Numbered from the stretch's first letter, positions 8,597 through 39,475 are shown. The stretch is 64,000 bases of DNA from an uncultured Chloroflexia bacterium (GCA_963831745.1 CAWHRD010000004.1:46005-110004), one strand, 5' to 3'. Translations and numbers: made by a program. Notes: a model not told the origin generated them from the letters alone.

Positions 8597-9426
8597 CGCC
8601 CCGTCCCGATCGAATCCGCCACCAGCGCCGCCGCCAGTCTCCGCCGGAGCTCGCTGGTGACGGCCATCTGGGCACCCGTGGGGACCCGCTGCTGCAGCCT
8701 GAGCGCGGCACCATCCATGCCGATCCCGGTCACCCAGATGTCGGTGGGTGCCTCCACGGCGAACCTGTCGGCCCAGGTCGAGTCCTCGCGCATGCCGTCG
8801 GCGACCTGGGCCGCGATCGCGAGAGCTCGATCGAGATCGCCGGCACGCAGGATGTGGAGGTCCACGACGGCGACGGAGAACAGCCGGGTGCGGTTGGACG
8901 ACAGCCGGATCAGACCGTTCGAGACCGCGTGCGACGAGCCCAGCCCGTCGCGCAGTATCGTCCGGCGCAGGCCGATCTCCTCCACGACGCCCTCGATCCC
9001 GGGGTGTCCGCCGACGGCCACGTAGTCGCCCTTGAAGTACGGGCCCTCCACGAGGATCAGGAGCCCCATCACGTAGTCGAGGACGACGTCCCGGGTGGCG
9101 ACCACGATGGCCACGATGACCAGGACGATGGCGGCGAGGATCGTCCACAGCTCGAAGACGGCCAGCGCCATGGCGATGAGCCCGGCCAGCACGCCCACGC
9201 GGAGGAGCTTGAGGAGGAGGTCCTCGATCGTCCCGATTCGCTTGCCGACCTCGTCGGCCGAGCTCGACCCGGACGGGAGATGCGTGGCCTGGGCGTTGAT
9301 GACGGCGGGCACGAAGCGGTGGATCGCCGTGACCCCGATCCGGTACACGAGCAACAGGATGGCGGCGCCGATCAGCAGCAGCGCCCCCCGGCCCAGGAGC
9401 CAACGAAGCGGCTCGTTCAGATCCAT
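8539..9426 (-). CDS. mscS: Mechanosensitive ion channel protein, MscS family
   Basis: TM helices are followed by the MscS beta-domain signature (GDYVAVGGHPGIEGVVEEIGLRRTILRDGLGSSHAVSNGLI). Start taken at the ATG giving MDLNEPLRWLL. Confidence 0.75.
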   Translation of the reverse strand: MDLNEPLRWLLGRGALLLIGAAILLLVYRIGVTAIHRFVPAVINAQATHLPSGSSSADEVGKRIGTIEDLLLKLLRVGVLAGLIAMALAVFELWTILAAIVLVIVAIVVATRDVVLDYVMGLLILVEGPYFKGDYVAVGGHPGIEGVVEEIGLRRTILRDGLGSSHAVSNGLIRLSSNRTRLFSVAVVDLHILRAGDLDRALAIAAQVADGMREDSTWADRFAVEAPTDIWVTGIGMDGAALRLQQRVPTGAQMAVTSELRRRLAAALVADSIGTGRWDTPMPIVSQSATSPQGG

Positions 9427-9554
9427 CTCGCCCCCCAGCAGGCGCCCTCCACCGGTCCATGGTGGCGATGGCGTCATGTCGGACAGCCTACCTTGAGCAC
9501 CGGTGCGACGGGCACCCGACCTCGACGCGGAGTGCCGCCCGGCCAGTCGCACGC

Positions 9555-10598: not shown

Positions 10599-10870
10599 GC
10601 TCCCTCGCTGCTGCACGGCCCGGCCTGTCGGGCCGCGTGACGGGCGTCGGTTCGACGGCCGGCACGACGCGCAAGCGCCTTGGTCCCTCTCGTGCGGCGC
10701 AAGAGTACCAACCATGGCGGACCGTGCTGGACCGGGCGGTCGCGGGCTGGGCAGGACGCTGCGACGTGCAGCCTCATGGCGTGGCCGACATGCGCGACAA
10801 TGGTGGCTCGTCGGACTGGTCGTCGGCCCGCGTCGAGCCACTGGCGGGATCGAGCGATGGGAGGGCTTTG

Positions 10871-16472: not shown

Positions 16473-18710
16473 GTGTCGATGGCGCGCACCGCAACCCAGG
16501 ATCCAGCCGGCGGCCGATCCGCCGGTCGTGACCGGCGCTCGTCGGCTGCGCCCGTCGTCGGCGCGTACGCCGTCGTCGGCGTCACCTGGATCCTGGCCTC
16601 CGACGTCTTCGTGCGGGCCGTGCTGCCGGGCCGTGCCGGCGAGCTCATCGGGTCCGTCAAAGGCGTCGGCTTCGTCGTCGTGACGACGATCGCGCTGTGG
16701 GGGATCCTCGCCGCGCGCGATCACCTGCTCGCGCGGACCGAGCGCGAGCGCATCGCCGCCGTGGAGGCGACGACGGCCATCTTCCGCTCGAGCCCGCTGG
16801 CGATCGTCGCGGCTGATCGCGACGGCCGCATCAGCGCCTGGAGCCCGGCAGCCGAGCGCGTGCTGGGCTGGCGCGAGGACGAGGTGGTCGGCCGACCCGC
16901 GACCATCCTGCGCCCCGACGACCCCGCCTGGGTCTCGCGGGGCTTCGCCGAGGTCATGGCGGGAGAGACGCTGGTCGCCGTCCCGGTGCGCTACCCGCAC
17001 CGCGACGGCCGGCCGCGCGACCTCGAGCTCTTCGTGGCCCCGCTGCGCGACGATGCCGGGGGGGTCCGCGGCGCGGTGGTCGTGGCGGAGGACGTCACGG
17101 CGATCCACGAGGCGCAGGCGGAGCGTGCCCGCCTCGCCACCGCCATCGACCAGGCGGCCGAGGCGATCGTGGTCACCGACCCCGACGGCCGGATCGTCTA
17201 CGCCAACCCCGCCTTCGAGCGGGTGACGGGCTACCCGCGGGCGGAGCTGCTGGGCCAGAACCCGCGCGTCCTCAAGAGCGGCGCCCACGACAGCGCCTTC
17301 TACGCCCGCCTCTGGTCGACCCTGCTCGCCGGCGAGACCTGGCGAGGAACGCTGACGAACCGCCGCAAGGACGGCACCCTTTTCGAGGAGGAGGCGGCGA
17401 TCTCCCCGGTCCGTGACTCGGCAGGCCGGATCACCGCGTACGTCGCCGTCAAGCGCGACCTGACCGCGGAGCGGGCGCTCGAAGCCGGCCTGCGCGCGGA
17501 GCTCGCCGACCGCGCTGCGGTGCGCGCAGCGATCGGCAGGATCACCGTCGGGCGGACGCCCGAGGCGACGGCCGAGTCGATCGTCGAGGCGCTGCTCCAC
17601 GTCGACGGGCTCGAGCATCCGTCGGTCTTCCACCTTGCCAGCCGGCCCGGGCGCGTGTTCCGCCTCGCCGGGCGCGTTCCGGGGGTGCGCATCGTGCCCG
17701 GCGAGGAGATGTCGGACGAGCGGGCCGAGTACCTGCGCCGACGGGCCGCCGACGGGCCCTGGATCCACGTCTTCGCCCACGAGCCGCCGCCGGGCGCGAA
17801 CGCCACGGCGATCGTCAGCGCGGGAGGCATCACGGGCGGGATCTACGCCCCGGTGGTCCACCAAGGGCGGGTCGTGGGCGTCGTGGGCGGCGTGACGACG
17901 CGGCCAGACCCCGCCGCGACGCTGGGCCGGCGGCTCGGCGCGCTCCTCGAGCTCGCCGTGGTCGCCGGGCCCATCCTCGCCCCGCAGCTGGCGGCGCGCG
18001 AGGATCTCGAGGGAGCGCGGGCGAGCATCCGGACGATCGCCCGAGGCCGCCGGTTCCACCCGGTGTTCCAGCCGATCGTGCGGCTCGCCGACCGCGGGGC
18101 GACCGGCTACGAGGCGCTGACGCGGTTCGCCGACGGGGTCGCGCCCGACGTGCGGTTCGCGGAGGCGGCGGCGCTCGGCGCCGGGATCGAGCTCGAGACG
18201 GCCTGCCTCCGCGCTGCGGTCGCGGCGGCGGGCGACCTCCCCGGGGACGCCTGGCTCAGCCTGAACGCCTCGGGGGCGATGATCCGGTCGGGCCGCCTGC
18301 GGACGATCCTGCGGCGGGTCGACCGCGACGTCGTCATCGAGCTGACGGAGCATGTCACCGTCGATGATTACGCCGGCCTGCGCGCCGCCATCGAGGCGCT
18401 CGGGCCCGGCGTGCGGCTGGCGGTCGACGACGGCGGCGCGGGCTTTGCCGGGCTGCGCCACGTCGTGGAGCTGCGCCCGCACATCGTGAAGCTCGACGCG
18501 GCCATCGTGCGGGGGATCGACGGCGATCCGGTGCGGCAGTCGCTGGTGGCCGGCATGCTCCACTACGCCCGCACGACCGGGACCTTCGTCGTCGCGGAAG
18601 GCGTCGAGACCGAGATGGAGGCGCAGACGCTCGCCGGGCTCGGCGTCGAGCTCGCGCAGGGCTACCTCTTCGCACGCCCGGCGCCGCTCGCGGACGGCCG
18701 CGCCGCCTGA
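16473..18710 (+). CDS. Membrane-anchored PAS-PAS-EAL domain protein (cyclic-di-GMP phosphodiesterase family), with an apparently degenerate central sensor domain and no GGDEF motif
   Basis: Two N-terminal TM helices, two PAS domains (RDGRISAWSPAAERVLGW; DGRIVYANPAFERVTGY...RKDGTLFEEE) and a C-terminal EAL domain (ELTE...DDGGAGFAG...KLD). GTG start. Confidence 0.8.
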   Translation: MSMARTATQDPAGGRSAGRDRRSSAAPVVGAYAVVGVTWILASDVFVRAVLPGRAGELIGSVKGVGFVVVTTIALWGILAARDHLLARTERERIAAVEATTAIFRSSPLAIVAADRDGRISAWSPAAERVLGWREDEVVGRPATILRPDDPAWVSRGFAEVMAGETLVAVPVRYPHRDGRPRDLELFVAPLRDDAGGVRGAVVVAEDVTAIHEAQAERARLATAIDQAAEAIVVTDPDGRIVYANPAFERVTGYPRAELLGQNPRVLKSGAHDSAFYARLWSTLLAGETWRGTLTNRRKDGTLFEEEAAISPVRDSAGRITAYVAVKRDLTAERALEAGLRAELADRAAVRAAIGRITVGRTPEATAESIVEALLHVDGLEHPSVFHLASRPGRVFRLAGRVPGVRIVPGEEMSDERAEYLRRRAADGPWIHVFAHEPPPGANATAIVSAGGITGGIYAPVVHQGRVVGVVGGVTTRPDPAATLGRRLGALLELAVVAGPILAPQLAAREDLEGARASIRTIARGRRFHPVFQPIVRLADRGATGYEALTRFADGVAPDVRFAEAAALGAGIELETACLRAAVAAAGDLPGDAWLSLNASGAMIRSGRLRTILRRVDRDVVIELTEHVTVDDYAGLRAAIEALGPGVRLAVDDGGAGFAGLRHVVELRPHIVKLDAAIVRGIDGDPVRQSLVAGMLHYARTTGTFVVAEGVETEMEAQTLAGLGVELAQGYLFARPAPLADGRAA

Positions 18711-18834
18711 CGCGCCGCGCCGCGCGGCGCCGGGAGCCGGCCTCTGTGCCGCCTGGCGTACCGCCCGGCAAGCCCGTGCAGCGGGCGGGGCCACGGCGTC
18801 GGGGCCACGGCGCAACGGCCACGGCGCCGGACAC

Positions 18835-18864
18835 CCCGAGACCCCGGCGGGCCGGGGTCTCGGG
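18835..18864. terminator. Perfect 13-bp GC hairpin with a 4-nt loop between convergent genes; candidate bidirectional terminator
   Basis: cccgagaccccgg-cggg-ccggggtctcggg, about 125 nt after the EAL-protein stop and about 110 nt after the minus-strand small ORF. Confidence 0.45.
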
Positions 18865-18971
18865 CGGAGGAGAGGCGGGCGAAGCGGGGGAGGAGTCCCG
18901 CTCGCCACGAGGCTTCGATCAAGGGCGGTGGCGCCCCGGGCGGCGCGGCCGCCCGGGGCACCGGGACAGGG

Positions 18972-19145
18972 TCAGCGGGCCACCGCCGGCCGCCACGGGA
19001 GAAGGAGGCGCCGCGGACGGTCGCGCCCGGCGTGCTCCGTCCCCCCCGCCGCCTGCCGGTTCCCCCCGGCGAGCCGCCGCTTGGCGGCCTCGACGGTCAG
19101 GTCGGCGTGACGGTGCTCGGCAACGAGCGCATGGGACCAGTTCAT
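18972..19145 (-). CDS. Hypothetical small protein (57 aa), preceded by a near-consensus Shine-Dalgarno; existence uncertain
   Basis: GGAGGAAGGAGG lies 5-6 nt upstream of the ATG (forward cctccttcctcc at 19152-19163). The N-terminal 27 aa (MNWSHALVAEHRHADLTVEAAKRRLAG) are protein-like but the C-terminus is low-complexity. Confidence 0.3.
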   Translation of the reverse strand: MNWSHALVAEHRHADLTVEAAKRRLAGGNRQAAGGTEHAGRDRPRRLLLPWRPAVAR

Positions 19146-19294
19146 CGCGGTCCTCCTTCCTCCCGGGCGGTGCGGCGGCCCGGGACGCTGGAGCAAGGAT
19201 GCGGCCGGCACGGCCTCGTGGGCGCTGGGCGCGTGTCGCCTGCGCGGCCGGCGGAACGTTGGCGAGGCGGGATCGTCGGCCGTCCATGCCCGGG

Positions 19295-19312
19295 ATCGTC
19301 ATCCGTCCATCC
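19295..19312 (-). repeat. Copy A of an exact 18-nt motif GGATGGACGGATGACGAT (minus-strand reading)
   Basis: Identical to 25705..25722. Encodes the mini-uORF ATG-GAC-GGA-TGA whose stop overlaps (ATGA) the next ATG. Confidence 0.6.
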
Positions 19313-19395
19313 CGCCGCCCGGAGCGTGCGGCGTTCGGCTCCTGAGTGCCGCCGGTACCGGGTGGAGGCGTCCGAGCCGCCGCGCCCGGACGCGG

Positions 19396-20043
19396 TCAGT
19401 CGACCAGGTGGTGCTCCACGGCCCACAGGGCGGCCTGGGTCCGGGACGCGAGCCCAAGCTTGCCCAGGATGTTGGAGACGTACGTGCGCGCCGTCCGCTC
19501 GGTGATGAAGAGCTCGGCGGCGATCTCCTTGTTGCTCATGCCCCTGCCGAGGAGCCGGAGGACGTCCTTCTCGCGGTCGGTCAGAGGCTCGGCCGCCTCC
19601 TCGTCGGCGGGACGGCGGCGCAGGCGCTGGGCGAGAAGCCGCGCGACCGCGGGATCCAGGTGGACGTTCCCATCGTGGGCGTCCCGGATCGCCGAGGCCA
19701 CCTCGTCGGCGGCGGCGTCCTTGAGCAGGTACCCCGCCGCGCCGGCCTCGAGGGCGGCCGTGACCTTCTCCTCCTCGATGAAGCTCGTCATGGCGACGAC
19801 CTCCACGTCGGGGAGCTCCTCGCGGATCCTGCCGATCGCGGTGATGCCGTCCATGCGGGGCATCAGGAGGTCCATGAGGACGACGTCGGGGGTGAGGCGG
19901 CGCGCCATCGCCAGGCCCTCGCTCCCGTCGGAGGCCTCGCCGACGACCTCGATGTCGTCGAGGAGGTCGAGGAACACGTGGAGGCCGGCGCGCACGACCT
20001 GGTGATCGTCCACGATCAAGACGCGGATCGGCGTCTCGGACAC
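19396..20043 (-). CDS. Two-component response regulator, NarL/FixJ (LuxR-type HTH) family
   Basis: Receiver domain (VLIVDDHQVVRAGL...VVLMDLLMP...VVAMTS...) plus a LuxR HTH (LTDREKDVLRLLGRGMSNKEIAAELFITERTARTYVSNILGKLG). GTG start at 20043. Confidence 0.85.
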   Translation of the reverse strand: MSETPIRVLIVDDHQVVRAGLHVFLDLLDDIEVVGEASDGSEGLAMARRLTPDVVLMDLLMPRMDGITAIGRIREELPDVEVVAMTSFIEEEKVTAALEAGAAGYLLKDAAADEVASAIRDAHDGNVHLDPAVARLLAQRLRRRPADEEAAEPLTDREKDVLRLLGRGMSNKEIAAELFITERTARTYVSNILGKLGLASRTQAALWAVEHHLVD

Positions 20044-20120
20044 GCTGGGCCCTCCTTCGAGCCCGGCCGGCCCATCGGCGAGCCCGGCCGGCGCATCGGC
20101 GCGGGCGGCGACGCCCCGCC

Positions 20121-20588
20121 TCATGCGGTCGTCCCGAGCATAGCATCGGCATCCGCGCCGGGACCGCGGCGCGGCCGGGCGGGGGCGCGCAGCGCGTCGA
20201 CGATCCGGTCCGCGAGGTCGCCGCCCTCCGGCGAAACGATGCTGATCCCGGGATCGTCGGCGAGGATCGGCGCCAGGCCCGGCGACCATGCCACCACCAC
20301 GACCCGGACCTCGGGCCGGTCGGCCCGCAGCCCGCGGATGAAGGCGATCCCGTCGGGCAGCTCCGGGAGCCGCGGGTCGACGACCACCGCGTCGGGGCGC
20401 CGCTCCTCGCAGGCGTCGAGCGCGGCGCGCGCATGGCCGACGCTGCCCACGACCTCCACCAGCTCCGCCAGGTCGAGGAGGCCCGCCAGGCTTGACCGGA
20501 CGCGCCGGTCCGCGTCCACGATCAGCAGGCGCAGCAGGCCGGGAGGCTCGACGCGGGGCACGGCGCGATCGGGCTCGTGGGGGATCAT
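20121..20588 (-). CDS. Stand-alone receiver (REC) domain protein, atypical (conserved Lys apparently absent)
   Basis: LLIVDADRRVRSSLAGLL...DAVVVDPRLPELPDGIAFIRGL...VRVVVVAWS. It sits between the giant kinase and the NarL regulator on the same strand. Confidence 0.55.
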   Translation of the reverse strand: MIPHEPDRAVPRVEPPGLLRLLIVDADRRVRSSLAGLLDLAELVEVVGSVGHARAALDACEERRPDAVVVDPRLPELPDGIAFIRGLRADRPEVRVVVVAWSPGLAPILADDPGISIVSPEGGDLADRIVDALRAPARPRRGPGADADAMLGTTA

Positions 20589-20708
20589 GCCGGCGAGCGT
20601 CCCACGCCCGCGCCCGGGCCGGGAACGGACGGTCGTCGGGTGCCGGCATCGACGAATGACGATGGCGGGAGCCGCGCGAGCGCCGGGGCGGCGGCCAGGC
20701 GCAGGGGG

Positions 20709-23700
20709 TCAGGCCGCCGGCGGCGTGGGTGGCGCGTGCAGCGTGACGACGATCTCCGTTCCCCGGCCCGGCGCGGAGCGGACGACGAGCCTGCCGCCCA
20801 CCCGCTCGGCCCGCGAGCGCATGCCCGCCAGGCCCAGGTGCCCGTCGGCGACCTCCAGCGGATCGAAGCCGACCCCGTCGTCGGCGATGCGGAGCGCGAC
20901 CTCCGGGCCGTCCCGGCCGAGCTCGATGCGCACCGTGGTGGCGTTGGCGTGCTTCACGATGTTGTGGAGCGCCTCCTGGGCGATTCGATACAGGGCGTCC
21001 TCCGCGGCGAGCGGCAGCCGCTCCACCTCGGCGACGTCGAGGACGATCGGCAGGCCGAGCCGCCCCTCGACGGCGGCCACGTGGGTGCGCAGGGCGTTCG
21101 TCAGGCCCTCGCGCTCGAGGCTGCCCGGCCGGAGCTCGAAGATCAGCGACCGCATCTCCGCGAGGGCGTCGCGCTGGAGCTCGCGGAGGTCCGCCAGCTT
21201 CGCGCGCGTCGCGGCGGGATCGCGGTCGAGCAGCACCTCGGCCGAGCGGGTGATGAGACCCATCGAGAAGAGCGCCTGCGTCACCGAGTCGTGGAGCTCG
21301 CGAGCGAGGTGCGCCCGCTCGGCGGAGGACGCCAGGGCGCCCGCCTGGTCGCGCAGCTCGCGCTCGAGGCGCACCTGCTCCCGGAGGTCCCGGATGGTCC
21401 CCTGGATGCCCGCGAAGCGCCCGTCCCTGAACAGGGGGACGCCCGAGATCTCGGCGGGGATCTGCGTGCCGTCCCGCCGGACGACCGTGGAGCGGACCCG
21501 CGCGACGGCATCGGGCGGGCCATCGGCGAGAGGCCTGAGCCGGGCCCGCACCTCCTCGACGGCCTCGGGCGCGACGACCGTGCTCCAGTGGCGCGCCATG
21601 AGCTCCTCGGGCTCCCAGCCGAGGAGGGACCGCGCGGCGTCGCTCCAGAACACCAGGTTGCCGGCCGGGTCCGTCTGCCAGACACCGTCCGGGGATGTCT
21701 GGACGAGCTCGCGGAAGCGCGCCTCCGAGTCGCGCAGCTCGCGCTCGAGGCGCAGCTGGTCCCGAAGGTCGCGAATTGATCCGTGCGCGCCGGCAAACCG
21801 TCCGTCGCGGGTGACCGGGACCGCGGCGATCTCGGACGGAAGCGGCTCGCCCGTCCGGCGGACCAGGTCGAGGCGGACGCGGACCACCCGGTCGTCGCCG
21901 TCGGCGAGCTGCCGCCAGGCGTCGGAGGCCGCCTCGGTGGCCCGGCCGCCGACGACCGTGGACCAGTGGCGTCCCAGGACGGCCTCGGGCGGGAACCCGG
22001 TGAGCATCGCCGCGGTGTCGCTCCAGAAGGTGAACACGCCGTCGGCGTCGGCCTGCCAGACGCCGTCCGGCGATGTCTGAACGAGGTCGCGGTAGCGCTC
22101 CTCGGACTCCCGGAGCTCGGCCTCCAGGCGGGCGCGCTCGCGGATGTCGCGGGCCGAGCCGCGCGACCCGACGAAGGCGCCGTCGACGACGCGCGGCACC
22201 GCGACGTTCTCGATCGGGACGGGGTACCCGTCGCGGTGGAGCAGCGAGAAGCGGGCGGTGTGGATCCGGTCCGGCTCGCGGCGGCTCGCCTCCCAGAGGT
22301 CGTTCGACGCCGCCTGCGAGGCCTCGTCGGGGAAGACCGTCGCCGAGAAGTGGCGCCCGACGAGCTCGCTGGCGGGGAGGCCCAGCATCTCGCGCGAGAG
22401 GCCCTCGATGTACACCAGGTTGCCCTCCGCGTCGGCCTCCCAGACGAGGTCGGGCGAGGTCGCCATCAGGTCGCGCAGCCGGGCGTCGGACTCGCGCAGC
22501 TCCCGCTCGAGGCGCTCGCGCTCGCTGACGTCACGGATCGCTCCGTGCGCGCCGCCGAACACACCATCGTCGAGGATCCCGACCGCCGAGACCTCCGTCG
22601 CGATGGTCGACCCGTCCCGGCGTCGCAGGACCAGGCGCTGGCGGATCGGCTCACGCTCCTCCGCGAGCCGGGCCCAGTCGGCGCGCGCCTCCTCCAGCGA
22701 GTCCGGGTCGACGATGCGCTCCCAGGACTCCCCGACGAGCTCGTCGGGGCGATACCCCAGGAGCGTCTCGACGGTCGAGCTGAAGAAGCTGAAGCGGCCC
22801 TCCCGGTCGATCCGCCAGATCGTGTCGGGCGACGCCTGCACGAGGTAGCGGTAGCGCTCCTCCGACGAGCTGACGCGGCCGATGAGGACGGCGTTCCGCA
22901 GCGCGGCCGCCGCGAGCCCGGCGAGCGCCTCGAGCGTTGCCGTGGCGTCGAGATCGAAGGCGTCGGCCCTGCGCGACAGCACGGTCAGGGCACCGATCGG
23001 GCCCTCGAGCCCACGGATCGGGGCCGCCAGGACGGACCGGACGCCCAGCCGGCGGATCCCCTCGTCCTGCTCGGGCCGCCGGGCGAAGGACCGGTCCTCG
23101 AGGTAGTCGCCCGTGCCGAAGGCGTGCCCCAGGCGGATCGCCGCGCCGGCCACGCCGGGTGCGTCGTCCCAGTCGTCGACCTCGAACCCGAGGCGGAACT
23201 GGTCGTCGCTGACGATCTCGCCGAGCTGCCGCCGGAGGGCGACGCCCTCGTCGCCGACGATGTCGACGCGCGCCCCGTCGGCGCCGAGGAGGCGGGCGGC
23301 CTCGTCGACCGTCAGCTGGACGATCTCCCCGGGCTCGCGCAGCTCGCCGATGCGCGCCGCGATCTCGCGGAGTGCGCGCTCGCGCGTGGCGCGCCGGGCG
23401 TTCTCCTCGGTGGCCCGGGCCAGTGCCGCCAGGCGCCGGCTGTTGGTCAGCGCAATCGAGGCCTGGACGGCGAACGCATCGAGGAGGTCGGCGTCGGCCT
23501 CTCCGAATGCCGCGGTCCGGACCGCGAGGACCGACAGGGTTCCGAGCGGCCGGCCGAGGCCCGGCAGCGGCGTCGAGAGGACGGAGCGGACCCCGGTCTC
23601 CGCCACGAACCGGCCGGACGCCGGGCCCGGCCGGACGCTCGGGTCCGCGAGGTAGTCGTCGGTCCAGACGGCACGACCCTCGGCGGCCGCGCGCCCGGCG

Positions 23701-25712
23701 ACGCCCTCGCCCATCGCGAGCCCGACCTCCCGGAGGAGCCTGGCGTCCGCGTCGGCCGTGGTCCCGTCGGCGATGGCCCAGCGGAGGCGCATCGTGGTCT
23801 CGTCGAGCAGGTCGATGCGGGCCCCGTCGGCACCGATGAGGCGCCGCGCCTCGGCGACGATGCGGCGCAGGAGCTCGTCGGGGTTGCCCACGGCCGTCAG
23901 GCGCGCGCCGATCTCGCGGAGCGCGGCCTCCCGCTCCGCCTGCCGGCGCAGGTCGTCGCGCGACCGGTCGAGGTCCTCGATCAGGCGCGCGCTGCCCAGG
24001 CTGATCGCGACCTGGGCCGCGATCGCTTCGAGAAGGGGGGCATGCTCCGACCCGAACGCGTTCGCCCGCGTCGAGAGGACGGTGAGCGCGCCGAGCGGGC
24101 CCGCCTCGCCGACGAGCGGCGCGGCGATCCCGGACCGGATCCCGACGCGGCGGACGTACACGTCCGCGCCCGACCCGTGCGGGAAGGTGTCGTCCCCGAG
24201 GTAGTCGCCGGTCCAGACGGTGCGGCCGTGCGTGTACGCCTGCCCCGAGAGGCCCTGGTCGGCGCGCTCGTCCGGCGTGTCGGGCCACTCCTCGAGCGTC
24301 GGCTGGGTCCCGTCGGACGTGTAGAGGCCGCGCAGGAGGCCGATCGCGGGCTGGTAGACATCCACCCTGGCGCTGTCCCCACCGAGCAGGCGGGTCGCCT
24401 CGTCGATCGCGAGCCCGACGACCTCGTCGACCCCGTGCGACGCGGAGATCCGCATCCCGATCTCCCGCAGGGCCCGCTCAACCTCGGCGCGGCGCGCCAG
24501 CTCGGCGCGGGACGCGGACAGCTCGGCGATGCGGAGCGCGTTGGAGATCGCGGCGGCGGTCTGCGTCGCGAGCGCCTCGAGCACCTCGAGATCCGACGCG
24601 CCGTAGGCCTGCGGCCGGTGGCTCGCCACCTGGATCGTGCCGAGGGTCCGGCCCTCGACCGAGAGCGGGGCGGCGGCCGTCGACCGGATCCCGGCGGCGG
24701 CCGCGCTGTGATCGGTCCGCGGGTCGTGGATGAACGTGCGGTCCCCGATGTAGTCGCCCGTCGCGACGGCGCGCCCGTGCAGCAGCGCCCTGCCCCAGAC
24801 GCCCGGGAGCTCGGCGGGATCCATCTCCCCGGCCACCACGGGGTCGCTGAAGTCGGCCGCGGCGTCGACCGGATCGGTGAAGAGGGAGCGCCCGGCGACC
24901 GCCTCGCTCAGGCTGATGGCGGCGAGGTGGGAGTCGAGGAGGCGTCGCGCGGCGCGGAGGATCGTCCCGAGGATCTCCATCGGGTCGTCCATGGCGCTGA
25001 TGCGGGCGGCGATCTCGCGGAGCGTCCGCTCCTCCTCGGCGCGCCGGGCGATCGCGCCGTTGGCAGCTTCGAGCTCGGCGATCAGCCGGGCGTTCTCGAG
25101 GGCGATGGCCGCCTGGGCGGCGAACGCCTCGAGCAGCTCGGCGTCGGCCTCGTCGAAGGCGTGCTCCCGCTGGGCGTACACCTCGAGGGCGCCGTAGAGC
25201 TCGGTCGCGCTCGCGATCGGCGCGGCCAGGAGCGACCGGAACCCCGTCACGTTGAAGAAATGGTCGGACTGGGGGACGCGGGGGAAGGCATTGACCAGGT
25301 CCTCGCCGCAGGCGAGGACCTGGCGTTCCGCCACGGCCCGGCCCGTGAGGCCGACGCCGACCTCGAGCGTCAGGGTGGCGACGTAGTCGGGGTCGAAGAG
25401 CGCGTGGACGCCGTCGTCGACGCCCCAGTGGAGGAGCCCGTCCGCCGGGTCGTAGCGCGAGACGATCGCGCCGTCGGCGCGAACGAGGCGCCCGGCTGCG
25501 AGGACCACCTGCTGGAGCACGGCGCCCGGGTCGCGCAGCCGGGCGAGCTCGCCGGTGATCTCGCGCAGCGTGCGCTCGGCCTCGGCGGTGCGGGCGCGCG
25601 CGTCGGGTGCGGGCGGGAGCGGTGGGCGAGCGCGGTCGGTCTCCACGGCCCGTGAGGATACCCGCGCGGGCCCGCGCGCGACATCGCCGTCCCGCCGCGC
25701 CGGCATCGTCAT
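20709..25712 (-). CDS. Giant cytoplasmic multi-sensor histidine kinase: 5 tandem GAF domains, 4 tandem PAS domains, then a HisKA_3 plus HATPase_c kinase core (about 1667 aa)
   Basis: Each GAF is introduced by a repeated linker (ARRAExERxLREI). The four PAS modules are strongly similar (LVQTSPDGVWQxDxxGxxxFWSD). H-box ELHDSVTQALF (NarL-partner HisKA_3 type); N/G boxes in the C-terminus. Start at the ATG giving MTMPARRDG. Confidence 0.85.
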   Translation of the reverse strand: MTMPARRDGDVARGPARVSSRAVETDRARPPLPPAPDARARTAEAERTLREITGELARLRDPGAVLQQVVLAAGRLVRADGAIVSRYDPADGLLHWGVDDGVHALFDPDYVATLTLEVGVGLTGRAVAERQVLACGEDLVNAFPRVPQSDHFFNVTGFRSLLAAPIASATELYGALEVYAQREHAFDEADAELLEAFAAQAAIALENARLIAELEAANGAIARRAEEERTLREIAARISAMDDPMEILGTILRAARRLLDSHLAAISLSEAVAGRSLFTDPVDAAADFSDPVVAGEMDPAELPGVWGRALLHGRAVATGDYIGDRTFIHDPRTDHSAAAAGIRSTAAAPLSVEGRTLGTIQVASHRPQAYGASDLEVLEALATQTAAAISNALRIAELSASRAELARRAEVERALREIGMRISASHGVDEVVGLAIDEATRLLGGDSARVDVYQPAIGLLRGLYTSDGTQPTLEEWPDTPDERADQGLSGQAYTHGRTVWTGDYLGDDTFPHGSGADVYVRRVGIRSGIAAPLVGEAGPLGALTVLSTRANAFGSEHAPLLEAIAAQVAISLGSARLIEDLDRSRDDLRRQAEREAALREIGARLTAVGNPDELLRRIVAEARRLIGADGARIDLLDETTMRLRWAIADGTTADADARLLREVGLAMGEGVAGRAAAEGRAVWTDDYLADPSVRPGPASGRFVAETGVRSVLSTPLPGLGRPLGTLSVLAVRTAAFGEADADLLDAFAVQASIALTNSRRLAALARATEENARRATRERALREIAARIGELREPGEIVQLTVDEAARLLGADGARVDIVGDEGVALRRQLGEIVSDDQFRLGFEVDDWDDAPGVAGAAIRLGHAFGTGDYLEDRSFARRPEQDEGIRRLGVRSVLAAPIRGLEGPIGALTVLSRRADAFDLDATATLEALAGLAAAALRNAVLIGRVSSSEERYRYLVQASPDTIWRIDREGRFSFFSSTVETLLGYRPDELVGESWERIVDPDSLEEARADWARLAEEREPIRQRLVLRRRDGSTIATEVSAVGILDDGVFGGAHGAIRDVSERERLERELRESDARLRDLMATSPDLVWEADAEGNLVYIEGLSREMLGLPASELVGRHFSATVFPDEASQAASNDLWEASRREPDRIHTARFSLLHRDGYPVPIENVAVPRVVDGAFVGSRGSARDIRERARLEAELRESEERYRDLVQTSPDGVWQADADGVFTFWSDTAAMLTGFPPEAVLGRHWSTVVGGRATEAASDAWRQLADGDDRVVRVRLDLVRRTGEPLPSEIAAVPVTRDGRFAGAHGSIRDLRDQLRLERELRDSEARFRELVQTSPDGVWQTDPAGNLVFWSDAARSLLGWEPEELMARHWSTVVAPEAVEEVRARLRPLADGPPDAVARVRSTVVRRDGTQIPAEISGVPLFRDGRFAGIQGTIRDLREQVRLERELRDQAGALASSAERAHLARELHDSVTQALFSMGLITRSAEVLLDRDPAATRAKLADLRELQRDALAEMRSLIFELRPGSLEREGLTNALRTHVAAVEGRLGLPIVLDVAEVERLPLAAEDALYRIAQEALHNIVKHANATTVRIELGRDGPEVALRIADDGVGFDPLEVADGHLGLAGMRSRAERVGGRLVVRSAPGRGTEIVVTLHAPPTPPAA

Positions 25713-25722
25713 CCGTCCATCC
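25705..25722 (-). repeat. Copy B of the exact 18-nt motif GGATGGACGGATGACGAT, coinciding with the translation start of the giant histidine kinase
   Basis: Identical to 19295..19312. The kinase ATG (25712..25710) is embedded as ggATGAcg. Confidence 0.6.
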
Positions 25723-25808
25723 TGCGACCGGCGCTGGGCGGCGCATTCGAGCCCCGGCCCGGATGGCGGCCCGGCGCGGCTTCGCGGGACCGGCCGTATC
25801 CTGTTCCT

Positions 25809-26654
25809 ATGAGCGCCGGCGTCCTCCTGTCGTCCCGCGCCGCCGCGAGCGACGCATCGTCCGCCGCGCCCCTCGTCGTCGCCGACCTCGAGGGGACGTG
25901 CACGGCCGGCGAGACCTGGCGAGGCGTCGGCGCGTGGCTCTCCGCGAACGGCCGCGGCGGCCGGTATAGGCGCTTCCTGGCGCCCCGCATGGCGGCCCTT
26001 CCCCTGGTGCGGCTCGGGCTCATCTCGCGCCAGGCATTCCGCGACCGCTGGATCGCCGATCTCGCACGGCTCCTCGACGACCTCGATCGCGACGAGCTGG
26101 CGCTGGTCGCCGAGGAGGTCGTCGAGCGGCACCTGTGGCCCCCCAGGCGCGACTCGGTCATCGCCGAGCTCGAGGCCGCTGCCGCGTCGGGTGCGCGTGT
26201 CGCGATCGCAACCGGCACCTACCAGCCCGTGCTCGACGCGTTCATCGCCCGCCTCGCGACGGGGCCCGCGGGACCCGTCGCGGGCCTCGGCACGGCGCTC
26301 GAGATCGTCGACGGCGTCACGACGGGCCGGCTCGTCGGACGGATCGGCACCGGGAGCCGGAAGGCACGCCGCGTCCGTGCATGGGCGGGCGAGGCGGCCC
26401 CCGTAGCGGGCGAGGCGGCCGCCGGCACGGGCGACGCGGCCCCCGCAACGGGCGACGCGGCCCCCGCAACGTGCAAGGCGGTCCTCGGAGGTGGCGGCGC
26501 GGCCCTTGCGGCAGCCTATGGCGACTCATTGGCGGACGTCCCGCTCCTCGAGATGGCCGCCGAGCCGGTCGCCGTCGCGCCCGACCCCGAGCTCCGGGCG
26601 CTCGCCGTCGCGCGCGGGTGGCGCATCCTCGACGACGTGGCCGCGGGGACATAG
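25809..26654 (+). CDS. HAD-superfamily subfamily IB hydrolase (phosphoserine-phosphatase-like)
   Basis: DLEGT motif I, a capping domain, and GDSLADVPLL motif IV. It contains an in-frame 21-nt tandem duplication (GDAAPAT x2). Confidence 0.7.
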   Translation: MSAGVLLSSRAAASDASSAAPLVVADLEGTCTAGETWRGVGAWLSANGRGGRYRRFLAPRMAALPLVRLGLISRQAFRDRWIADLARLLDDLDRDELALVAEEVVERHLWPPRRDSVIAELEAAAASGARVAIATGTYQPVLDAFIARLATGPAGPVAGLGTALEIVDGVTTGRLVGRIGTGSRKARRVRAWAGEAAPVAGEAAAGTGDAAPATGDAAPATCKAVLGGGGAALAAAYGDSLADVPLLEMAAEPVAVAPDPELRALAVARGWRILDDVAAGT

Positions 26655-35905: not shown

Positions 35906-35957
35906 GGCGCAAGGATACGGGTGGCCACCACCCGGCGTTCCCGATCGCCAGGCCTGC

Positions 35958-38922: not shown

Positions 38923-39015
38923 CGTCGTCCGGCTCCTGTGCAGGCGGGGCAGCGCCGGGGGGTGCGTGGCGGGACCCGCGCGGTCGCGTCGTCACGGCGA
39001 TTGTATGGACCGCGA

Positions 39016-39144
39016 CCCGGCGCCGGACGGACGCGCGACCCGGCGCCGGACGGACGCGCGGCGCGGCGCTGGACGGACGCGCGCCCCGGCGCTGGACGGA
39101 CGCGCGCCCCGGCGCTGGACGGACGCGCGGCGCGGCGGGCGCGG
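39016..39144. repeat. Tandem array of five 23-bp repeats plus a partial sixth (consensus CCCGGCGCYGGACGGACGCGCGM) in a divergent promoter region
   Basis: Units at 39016, 39039, 39062, 39085 and 39108. There are no spacers, so this is not a CRISPR array. Confidence 0.7.
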
Positions 39145-39217
39145 AAACCGGTGATCGGCCGCGGGACGGTACACTCCACGCATTCCGCGCCGCCCGGCGC
39201 GCCAGCGAGAGGGACGG

Positions 39218-39475
39218 ATGACCAAGCGATCCAAGCACGAGCGCGCCCAGCGCGCCATCGAGACCGACCGGGTGCGCCAGATCGAGGCGTCCTGGGCGGC
39301 CAGCACACCCTCTTCGGTGGCCCGCGAGTTCGAGACGGCCGTCCGGGCCGCCCGCGAGCGGGGCCCGCTCCCGCCCCCGCCCGACATGGCCCCGGGCACC
39401 GCCCCGAACCCGCCCCGCCCCGGCCACGAGCCGAAGCCGCCCAAGGGCGCGGAGCGCCCGCGGAGGGGCCGCTAG
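39218..39475 (+). CDS. Hypothetical small basic protein (85 aa) with a Pro-rich C-terminus
   Basis: RBS-like GAGAGGGACGG before the ATG. The N-terminal half is charged and helical (MTKRSKHERAQRAIETDRVRQIEASWAA). Confidence 0.35.
   Translation: MTKRSKHERAQRAIETDRVRQIEASWAASTPSSVAREFETAVRAARERGPLPPPPDMAPGTAPNPPRPGHEPKPPKGAERPRRGR

Follow-up and report, generated by a model that had tools for sequence, protein, structure and literature searches.

In a window of 64 kb from an uncultured Chloroflexota bacterium (CAWHRD010000004.1:46005-110004; the window is the whole stretch of DNA that was analysed), the 18-nt word GGATGGACGGATGACGAT occurs in two exact copies on the minus strand, one (box B) in front of the gene encoding a giant sensor histidine kinase and the other (box A1) behind the gene encoding the NarL-family response regulator of the same operon. 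We suggest, with a probability of about 70%, that this word is the operator or upstream activating site (UAS) of the cognate LiaR/VraR-like regulator, which would control its own operon and a small open reading frame (ORF) next to it. Which protein binds there, that it activates and does not repress, and where the transcription start sites (TSS) lie are points that we infer from sequence comparison. An earlier note on this DNA had taken the word for a duplicated translation-initiation cassette and had offered as a second reading a shared site, for example for the NarL-type regulator; it is this second reading that appears to be favoured by the conservation of the box, its fixed spacing to the -10 element at three transcription units, its restriction to the operon and its co-occurrence with a particular recognition helix.

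The genes of the window were defined by frame analysis of the G+C content at third codon positions (GC3) together with Pfam, and the homologues of the regulator point to the class Limnocylindria of the uncultured Chloroflexota as the place of the window. For comparison, orthologous loci were obtained by exact-protein look-up (L001-L004) and by one scan of species-representative genomes (L005-L084), and closer relatives of the window were added (L085-L091). An exact-protein look-up of the window regulator itself gave no record, and a look-up of the identical small-ORF protein returned no DNA. About 35 of the loci belong to uncultured Limnocylindria with the gene order kinase, receiver, regulator, and these carry the same core, GGATGACG, which takes the form TGGACGGATGACGAT in the clade of the window. 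In the orthologues the box is found at the same three places, namely before the kinase gene, in the spacer between the kinase and receiver genes (roughly 26 of the about 35 Limnocylindria loci, as counted from the listed matches) and after the regulator gene.

A position weight matrix (PWM) trained on 16 kinase promoters was used to scan 649 kb of sequence and gave 79 matches, compared with about 5 in shuffled sequence. Almost all of them were intergenic and clustered at the two-component operon, which was the case in every locus, with two to three boxes per operon. At 18 bits or more there were 53 matches in 35 Limnocylindria loci (16 of them the training sites) and a single one in 47 loci of homologues from outside the Limnocylindria. 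In the window five matches reached a score of at least 14.

The duplication by itself carries less weight than was first supposed. It had been argued that a second copy of an 18-nt word is improbable in 64 kb, and as a general statement this does not stand in a window of 70-79% G+C, where about ten further dispersed exact 18-nt pairs were found, mostly G+C-rich with 4-7 A/T of 18 (for example 5190/15215, 8801/24007, 14718/59533, 17328/25905, 28863/45238 and 56565/57872). Because of these pairs, a bare duplication of 18 nt is weak evidence in this genome. For this particular word, however, the expectation under independent and identically distributed bases is 6e-7. The pair has the highest A+T content of all exact pairs (8 of 18) and all copies are intergenic. 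Both exact copies are where the earlier note had placed them, and their identity extends to 23 nt at one mismatch (GGATGGACGGATGACGATsCCGG). When up to three mismatches were allowed, four matches were found in the window where 0.08 are expected; the two additional ones, with three mismatches each, are a tandem copy next to A1 (box A2) and an inverted copy in the kinase/receiver spacer (box C). The positions of these and of the other features are collected in Table 1.

Table 1. Boxes, promoter elements and genes of the two-component region, in window coordinates
Feature	Position	Strand	Remarks
Box B, exact 18-nt word GGATGGACGGATGACGAT	25705..25722	-	-76 to -59 relative to the kinase GTG; read as distal regulator box (UAS)
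Box A1, exact 18-nt word	19295..19312	-	-167 to -150 relative to the small-ORF ATG
Box A2, GCATGGACGGCCGACGAT	19272..19289	-	tandem copy 23 nt downstream of A1; Tandem Repeats Finder (TRF) period 23, 2.1 copies
Box C, GCATCGACGAATGACGAT	20646..20663	+	inverted, 3 mismatches; -75 to -58 relative to the receiver-gene ATG
Weaker proximal element, GGGACGGCGATGTC	25680..25693	-	CGATGTC part at 25680-25686 (-40 to -34), exactly 20 nt after GGATGACG
-10 box TATCCT, kinase	25655..25660	-	8 nt before GTG; conserved in 16 orthologues
-10 box TATCCT, HAD-hydrolase gene	25797..25802	+	6 nt before ATG; leaderless layout as at the kinase
-10-like hexamer GACGCT	20596..20601	-	7 nt before the receiver-gene ATG (20588)
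Candidate -10 hexamer CATCCT, small-ORF promoter	19196..19201	-	putative
Predicted 5'-leader hairpin	19153..19193	-	CUCC paired with GGAG of the small-ORF Shine-Dalgarno (SD) sequence; minimum free energy -26.5 kcal/mol, z = -2.1
Sensor histidine kinase	20709..25646	-	1645 aa from GTG 25646; 5 GAF, 4 PAS, HisKA_3, HATPase_c (Pfam)
Stand-alone receiver-domain protein	20121..20588	-	155 aa; Pfam PF00072
NarL/FixJ-family response regulator	19396..20043	-	215 aa; GTG start; SD GAAGGAGG; Pfam; candidate box binder
Small ORF	18972..19145	-	57 aa; strong SD GGAGGAAGGAGG; Limnocylindria-specific family; presumed regulated target
HAD hydrolase	25809..26654	+	divergent from the kinase; Pfam
PAS-EAL gene	16473..18710	+	convergent with the small ORF

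Promoters of the kinase and receiver genes

The kinase promoter has the same layout in 16 species, which consists of GGATGACG, 46-48 nt, TATCCT, 6-9 nt and a start codon (GTG in 15 of them and ATG in L017), with ORFs of 1038-2431 aa behind it. Measured from the end of the 18-nt word, the distance to TATCCT is 44 nt in the window and 44-46 nt at the kinase promoters. The hexamer occurs three times in the window, with the start codon of a long GC3-rich ORF following after 6-8 nt in every case; these ORFs are the kinase gene, the HAD gene and the gene at 35917. A TANNNT sequence about 12 bp upstream of the start has been described as the signature of leaderless genes (PMC3160421), and the kinase gene has TATCCT 8 nt ahead of its GTG, within the spacing of about 6-9 nt adopted here, and no SD sequence. 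Eight more long GC3-rich ORFs of the window have TANNNT 6-8 nt before their start, at 9490(-), 25797(+), 31029(-), 32406(-), 32455(+), 35917(-), 43193(+) and 50474(-). As nine genes of the window, the kinase included, have this arrangement, leaderless expression seems to be common in this genome.

Since TATCCT and GTG are conserved, the N-termini of the orthologous kinases align from the GTG (VE[T/I]D...AERTLREITGEL) and the ATG of the box is out of frame in relatives, the kinase most likely starts at GTG 25646 on a leaderless messenger RNA (mRNA). Box B would then lie upstream of the kinase transcript start. This conserved start is 66 nt downstream of the ATG in copy B from which the kinase had been thought to begin (MTMPARR...), and that ATG is probably not its start. 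In public records the orthologous kinases of L001-L003 (4692) are called from the ATG of the box and that of L004 (5278) from a codon further downstream, and these calls are probably start-codon misannotations.

Between box B and the -10 hexamer there is a weaker proximal element. The 7-mer placed 20 nt after GGATGACG was compared in the kinase promoters of the window, L001, L004-L006, L009, L014-L019, L021, L024, L025 and L035, and it is CGATsCC or CGATGTC in 13 of the 16, the variants being CGCTTCC (L004), CCATGCC (L015) and CAATCCC (L035). The distal box and the proximal element together cover about 43 bp (-76 to -34). A scan for sigma-70 -35/-10 pairs around all boxes found none, which is consistent with promoters that have a -10 element only and depend on an activator; intrinsic terminators were also searched for around all boxes and none was found. 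The box was considered as a -35 element too and this was ruled out, the -10 being 44-48 nt away.

At the receiver gene, box C is the most conserved block in the alignment of the kinase/receiver intergenic regions. In eight loci of other clades this promoter is composed of a box in direct orientation, 48-49 nt, a hexamer (GACACT, TAGGCT, CACCAT or GATCAT), 6-8 nt and the ATG. Six loci of the window clade (the window, L001, L004, L005, L006 and L027) have the box inverted relative to the other Limnocylindria, and 43-44 nt separate the end of the inverted block from a [G/C]ANNNT hexamer (GACGCT, GAGGCT, CACCCT or CACGCT) that stands 6-7 nt before the receiver start. A position kept in spite of a flipped orientation would be expected of a protein-binding site and not of an RNA or coding feature. 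When compared with L009-L035 (at about 9380-9445), the inverted segment of the window is flanked by CATCG and CGATG, which suggests that box C arose by micro-inversion in place.

An antisense promoter served by the inverted box C was also considered and discarded: no -10-like hexamer lies at 44-49 nt, and the sole candidate, TCAGGC, overlaps the kinase stop and is without the A at position 2 and the T at position 6. In L009, L011, L012, L019, L020, L021 and L033 a separate palindrome, GTGTCGGC-N4-GCCGACAC, was observed about 30-45 nt before the receiver start (about 9480-9505 in L009). It overlaps the -10-like GACACT of other clades, is absent from the window, and may serve a second factor as operator or fold as a hairpin in RNA.

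The small ORF and its leader

Box A1 is located 84 nt past the stop of the regulator gene and 150 nt before the 57-aa small ORF with its SD sequence, much as the earlier note had described. Proteins of 50-57 aa belonging to the same family follow the regulator gene in eight loci (the window, L001, L006, L008, L013, L022, L023 and L033). Each of these ORFs has an SD sequence, GAAAGGAGG, and in all but L013 a box is found 136-165 nt upstream of the start. Altogether a box precedes members of the family in the window, L001, L006, L008, L022, L023, L033, L085-L091 and six metagenome contigs. The family comprises 26 clusters, for which the source names given are all 'hypothetical protein' in Limnocylindrales or Chloroflexota records, and no family was found for the small ORF in Pfam and NCBIfam. 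Since box A and the small ORF are missing together in L004 and L005, they form one unit.

Among the close relatives the core of A1, ATGGACGGATGACGA, is kept in place in L085 and in L086-L090, with one substitution in L091 (ATCGACGGATGACGA) and in L001 (ATGGACGGACGACGA). The tandem copy A2 is present in the window and L085 only, when the window, L001 and L085-L091 are compared. Within A2 the sequence CGATCCC (19269-19275) lies 21 nt after the GGATGACG of A1 and mirrors the proximal element of box B. As regards the promoter, relatives share a hexamer (CATCCT, CATCGT or CATTCT) that precedes the start of the small ORF by about 45-55 nt. In the window no -10 was found 44-46 nt downstream of A1 or of A2, and no convincing third box has the canonical spacing to CATCCT.

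A metagenome scan for the exact 18-nt word returned 82 stretches, many of which are chance matches in unrelated contigs of lower G+C content. Six independent high-GC contigs, however, carry the identical word followed by 46 nt, GATGCT, a leader of about 43 nt with the SD sequence GAAAGGAG and a member of the family of 56-69 aa. Among the other stretches two have a tandem like A1/A2 and one has receiver and regulator genes.

The 5' leader of the small ORF is predicted to form a hairpin that may act as a translational control element. Its sequence is almost invariant in close relatives and shows no covariation there; in distant relatives a CCCG...CGGG stem recurs with one compensatory change, which is weak support. 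Covariation was not demonstrable for this leader hairpin.

The candidate binder and competing explanations

Among solved structures the regulator is closest to LiaR/VraR (PDB 5HEV, E 1.6e-57; also 7VE6 and 4GVP). DevR was found among the PDB matches as well (3C3W, E 1.8e-39), with a similarity lower than that to LiaR/VraR. In LiaR the bases are contacted by Lys174, Lys177 and Thr178 (PMC4482077), and these residues align with R183, R186 and T187 of the window regulator, the two lysines being arginines here. The recognition helix, ERTARTYVSNILGKL, is near-invariant in the Limnocylindria regulators. Homologues from outside the Limnocylindria, in whose loci the box is absent, mostly have K-T-V-K at the equivalent helix positions.

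We propose the following model. Box B, together with the weaker proximal element, heads the putative leaderless kinase promoter; box C, although flipped, holds the matching position before the receiver and regulator genes; and A1 and A2 lie upstream of the SD-led small ORF. The phosphorylated LiaR/VraR-like regulator, as a dimer or a tetramer, would bind to the distal box and cooperatively to the weaker proximal element as well. Once bound, it would recruit RNA polymerase to promoters with a -10 but no recognisable -35, so that the operon would be positively autoregulated and the small ORF induced.

Several observations weigh against this model. Dimers of the NarL family usually bind inverted repeats, and the box is without a clear dyad: the window sequence is not palindromic and a palindrome model did not fit. 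GACG is repeated in it at a spacing of 7 nt, the box is found in either orientation at the same position, and an arrangement CGTCATC-N5-GATGACG was seen in some clades (L024). Nor could the T(X)4C(X)4G(X)4A pattern of Firmicute LiaR be fitted in any register to either strand of the 21-nt box region when checked by hand, and for this reason the window box is not classed with the Firmicute LiaR box. The window boxes are 70 nt (A2) and 93 nt (A1) away from the candidate -10 of the small ORF, not 44-46 nt, so with CATCCT as the putative -10 the geometry of this promoter would differ in the window. The -10-like hexamers of the receiver promoters begin with G or C, not with T. Finally, the relatives have a few box copies in other places, one example being some 150 nt ahead of a DUF2089 gene, and these could mean that the regulon is wider or that the binder is a different one.

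A reading that we hold unlikely is that the box is a real promoter-upstream element bound by another factor, such as a different transcription factor, a global regulator or an UP-like element associated with RNA polymerase or sigma at leaderless promoters. The box has not the dyad symmetry usual for sites of the NarL family, and box copies near other genes (DUF2089 in L014, L016 and L018, with more sites in L019 and L023), as well as a box-like word at 39209 in the window that lies across the start of an unrelated 85-aa ORF, would agree with such a factor. Against it stands the clustering of two to three boxes at the two-component operon in every locus, and none of the eight other leaderless promoters in the window adjoins any of the five PWM matches mentioned above. 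Loci of related regulators whose recognition helix is different lack the box, and in systems of the LiaR/VraR type autoregulation by the adjacent regulator is the rule (PMC4482077). A role in RNA, with C pairing with A1 or B in a read-through transcript, or a cis-regulatory RNA or small-RNA target, is very improbable. In its favour, C matches the reverse complement of A1 and B at all but three positions, and the receiver and regulator genes are flanked by C and A1. In most clades, however, the orientation of box C is direct, which leaves no complementarity, and it is this orientation in other clades that led us to disfavour a C/A1 duplex; L004 and L005 keep the inverted C without a copy of A, and box B is upstream of the putative kinase TSS. 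A search of Rfam over 18500-26500 (E up to 10) gave a best E of 0.28 with all hits far below the gathering scores, and none overlaps a box, the nearest being a spurious mir-128 hit at 19118-19196 over the small-ORF leader. As for a repeat that is neutral or due to chance, or that is a piece of a mobile element or dispersed repeat, the frequency of exact 18-nt pairs in this GC-rich window and the chance occurrences of the exact word in unrelated low-GC metagenome contigs might recommend it. Its probability is practically negligible, for the low expectation of this word is joined by the conservation of its position in about 35 species-level loci at a fixed spacing to the promoters, by which chance is effectively refuted, and neither terminal repeats nor a transposase context was found.

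Translation of the word as a mini upstream ORF (uORF) encoding MDG-stop, which ATGA would couple to the kinase at one copy and to a frame behind the regulator gene at the other, is hardly credible either. Both window copies do literally read ATG GAC GGA TGA with the overlapping ATGA, as the earlier note had stated, the ATG of the box is in frame with the kinase with no stop between them in the window and in L001, and the public gene calls of L001-L003 begin there. Among the orthologues, however, the start codon of the uORF is ATG, GTG, CTC, CGG or CTG, and in L004, L005 (whose regulator is 97% identical) and L009 the kinase is read in another frame than the second ATG. No SD sequence precedes the uORF, and the conserved TATCCT and GTG lie downstream of the box. 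The frame said to open at copy A (MTIPGMDG...) has a GC3 of 0.72 and is not coding-like, the kinase having 0.96. In addition, box C is conserved in the opposite orientation and so cannot encode the uORF, and what follows the metagenome copies is a -10-like hexamer with a leader and not the start of a coding sequence. On these observations the cassette was rejected. The conserved -10, 44 nt downstream of the word, argues that the word is probably not transcribed, although a further promoter upstream of it may exist. Both the TGA 'stop' and the ATGA overlap fall inside the invariant GATGACG core, and the whole ATG-GAC-GGA-TGA/ATGA pattern is most likely a by-product of the box sequence.

The operator reading may also be carried further, into a proposal that we regard as quite improbable. 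The box would be an orientation-independent and position-locked activating module, which in the course of Limnocylindria evolution would have been flipped in place at the receiver promoter between short inverted repeats (CATCG...CGATG). In this strain regulator tetramers might bridge B, C and A1/A2, with the kinase gene (5 kb) and the receiver-regulator segment (1.3 kb) forming loops between them, and so set the stoichiometry of the kinase, the receiver as a phosphate sink, the regulator and the small protein. In a more exotic variant the ATG-GAC-GGA-TGA word might also be translated from a longer, condition-specific transcript.

Box copies outside the operon were noted at L014 17565, L016 17051, L018 17676 and L007 16100, about 140-170 nt upstream of a leaderless DUF2089 gene, a spacing that is not the canonical 44-48 nt. 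The product of this gene has a zinc ribbon and a helix-turn-helix (HTH), confirmed with Pfam for the L014 copy, and the gene has its own repeated ACAAAGTGA/TTGACAAAGTGAAA motifs. In the window there is a 23-nt tandem array at 39007-39137 (5.7 copies, 92% matches) whose units hold (T)GGACGGACGCGCG, that is the first half of the box, and which shares the 23-nt period with A1/A2. It is placed upstream of an 85-aa ORF (39218-39475), whose start context GAGGGACGGATGACCAAG scores 18.4 bits with the box PWM and for which no Pfam or NCBIfam family was found. This ORF could be a further target or a coincidence.

In these genomes intergenic spacers and gene ends often contain tandem repeats with units of 21-23 nt (in L001 for instance at about 10700-10830). 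Those of the window include 20058-20101 (21 nt, 2.1 copies) in the receiver-regulator spacer and 26386-26505 (21 or 63 nt, 4.6 copies) near the 3' end of the HAD gene.

Related systems and significance

The closest functional analogues are LiaFSR with LiaR of Enterococcus and Bacillus and VraSR with VraR of Staphylococcus, to which the regulator is also nearest in sequence. LiaR is active as a tetramer, and its footprints of 29-43 bp, composed of the consensus and an adjoining secondary site, lie upstream of its own and of its target operon about 70-120 nt before the start (PMC4482077). This is similar to the strong distal box and weaker proximal element of about 43 bp at the operon described here, and to the double box before the small target gene. 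The base-contacting lysines of LiaR are replaced by arginines (R183 and R186), as noted above. In contrast to LiaS, the kinase is giant, with GAF and PAS domains, and is not of the LiaS type in Pfam and NCBIfam searches, in addition to which no LiaF partner was identified. The promoters differ from those of LiaR and VraR in being apparently leaderless, and the operon has an extra stand-alone receiver gene.

In Mycobacterium the GAF-domain HisKA_3 kinases DosS and DosT work with DosR (DevR), a regulator of the NarL family that binds boxes at its own operon and at the genes of its regulon. DosR recognises a palindrome of 20 bp; the box described here is not palindromic, and its kinase has five GAF and four PAS domains. 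Leaderless genes of Actinobacteria, Deinococcus-Thermus and some Chloroflexi have a -10 box next to the start codon (TANNNT about 12 bp upstream; PMC3160421), and the nine window genes are similar, with TATCCT 6-8 nt before GTG or ATG at the kinase gene, the HAD gene and a third gene; the difference is that here an upstream box at a fixed distance appears to replace the -35 element. With ATGA-coupled uORFs the window shares the literal ATG-GAC-GGA-TGA/ATGA pattern, but of their defining traits a conserved start codon and a reading frame linked to that of the downstream gene were not found in the orthologues, where a location in the mRNA is improbable too.

The case carries a caution for the reading of single genomes, as an operator sequence may by itself give rise to a striking uORF/ATGA pattern, and it leads to a likely correction of the start of the giant kinase to a leaderless GTG. 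The operator and regulon would be new for an uncultured lineage, while their kind is ordinary, namely autoregulation by a response regulator together with control of a target. The Limnocylindria considered here are known from metagenome assemblies alone, many of them from soil, and this is apparently the first concrete cis-regulatory code for a two-component system in the class, with a box, a geometry and a minimal regulon. That minimal regulon would consist of the kinase, the receiver and regulator, and a lineage-specific protein of 50-69 aa, represented in the window by the 57-aa protein, which would be the only conserved target outside signalling.

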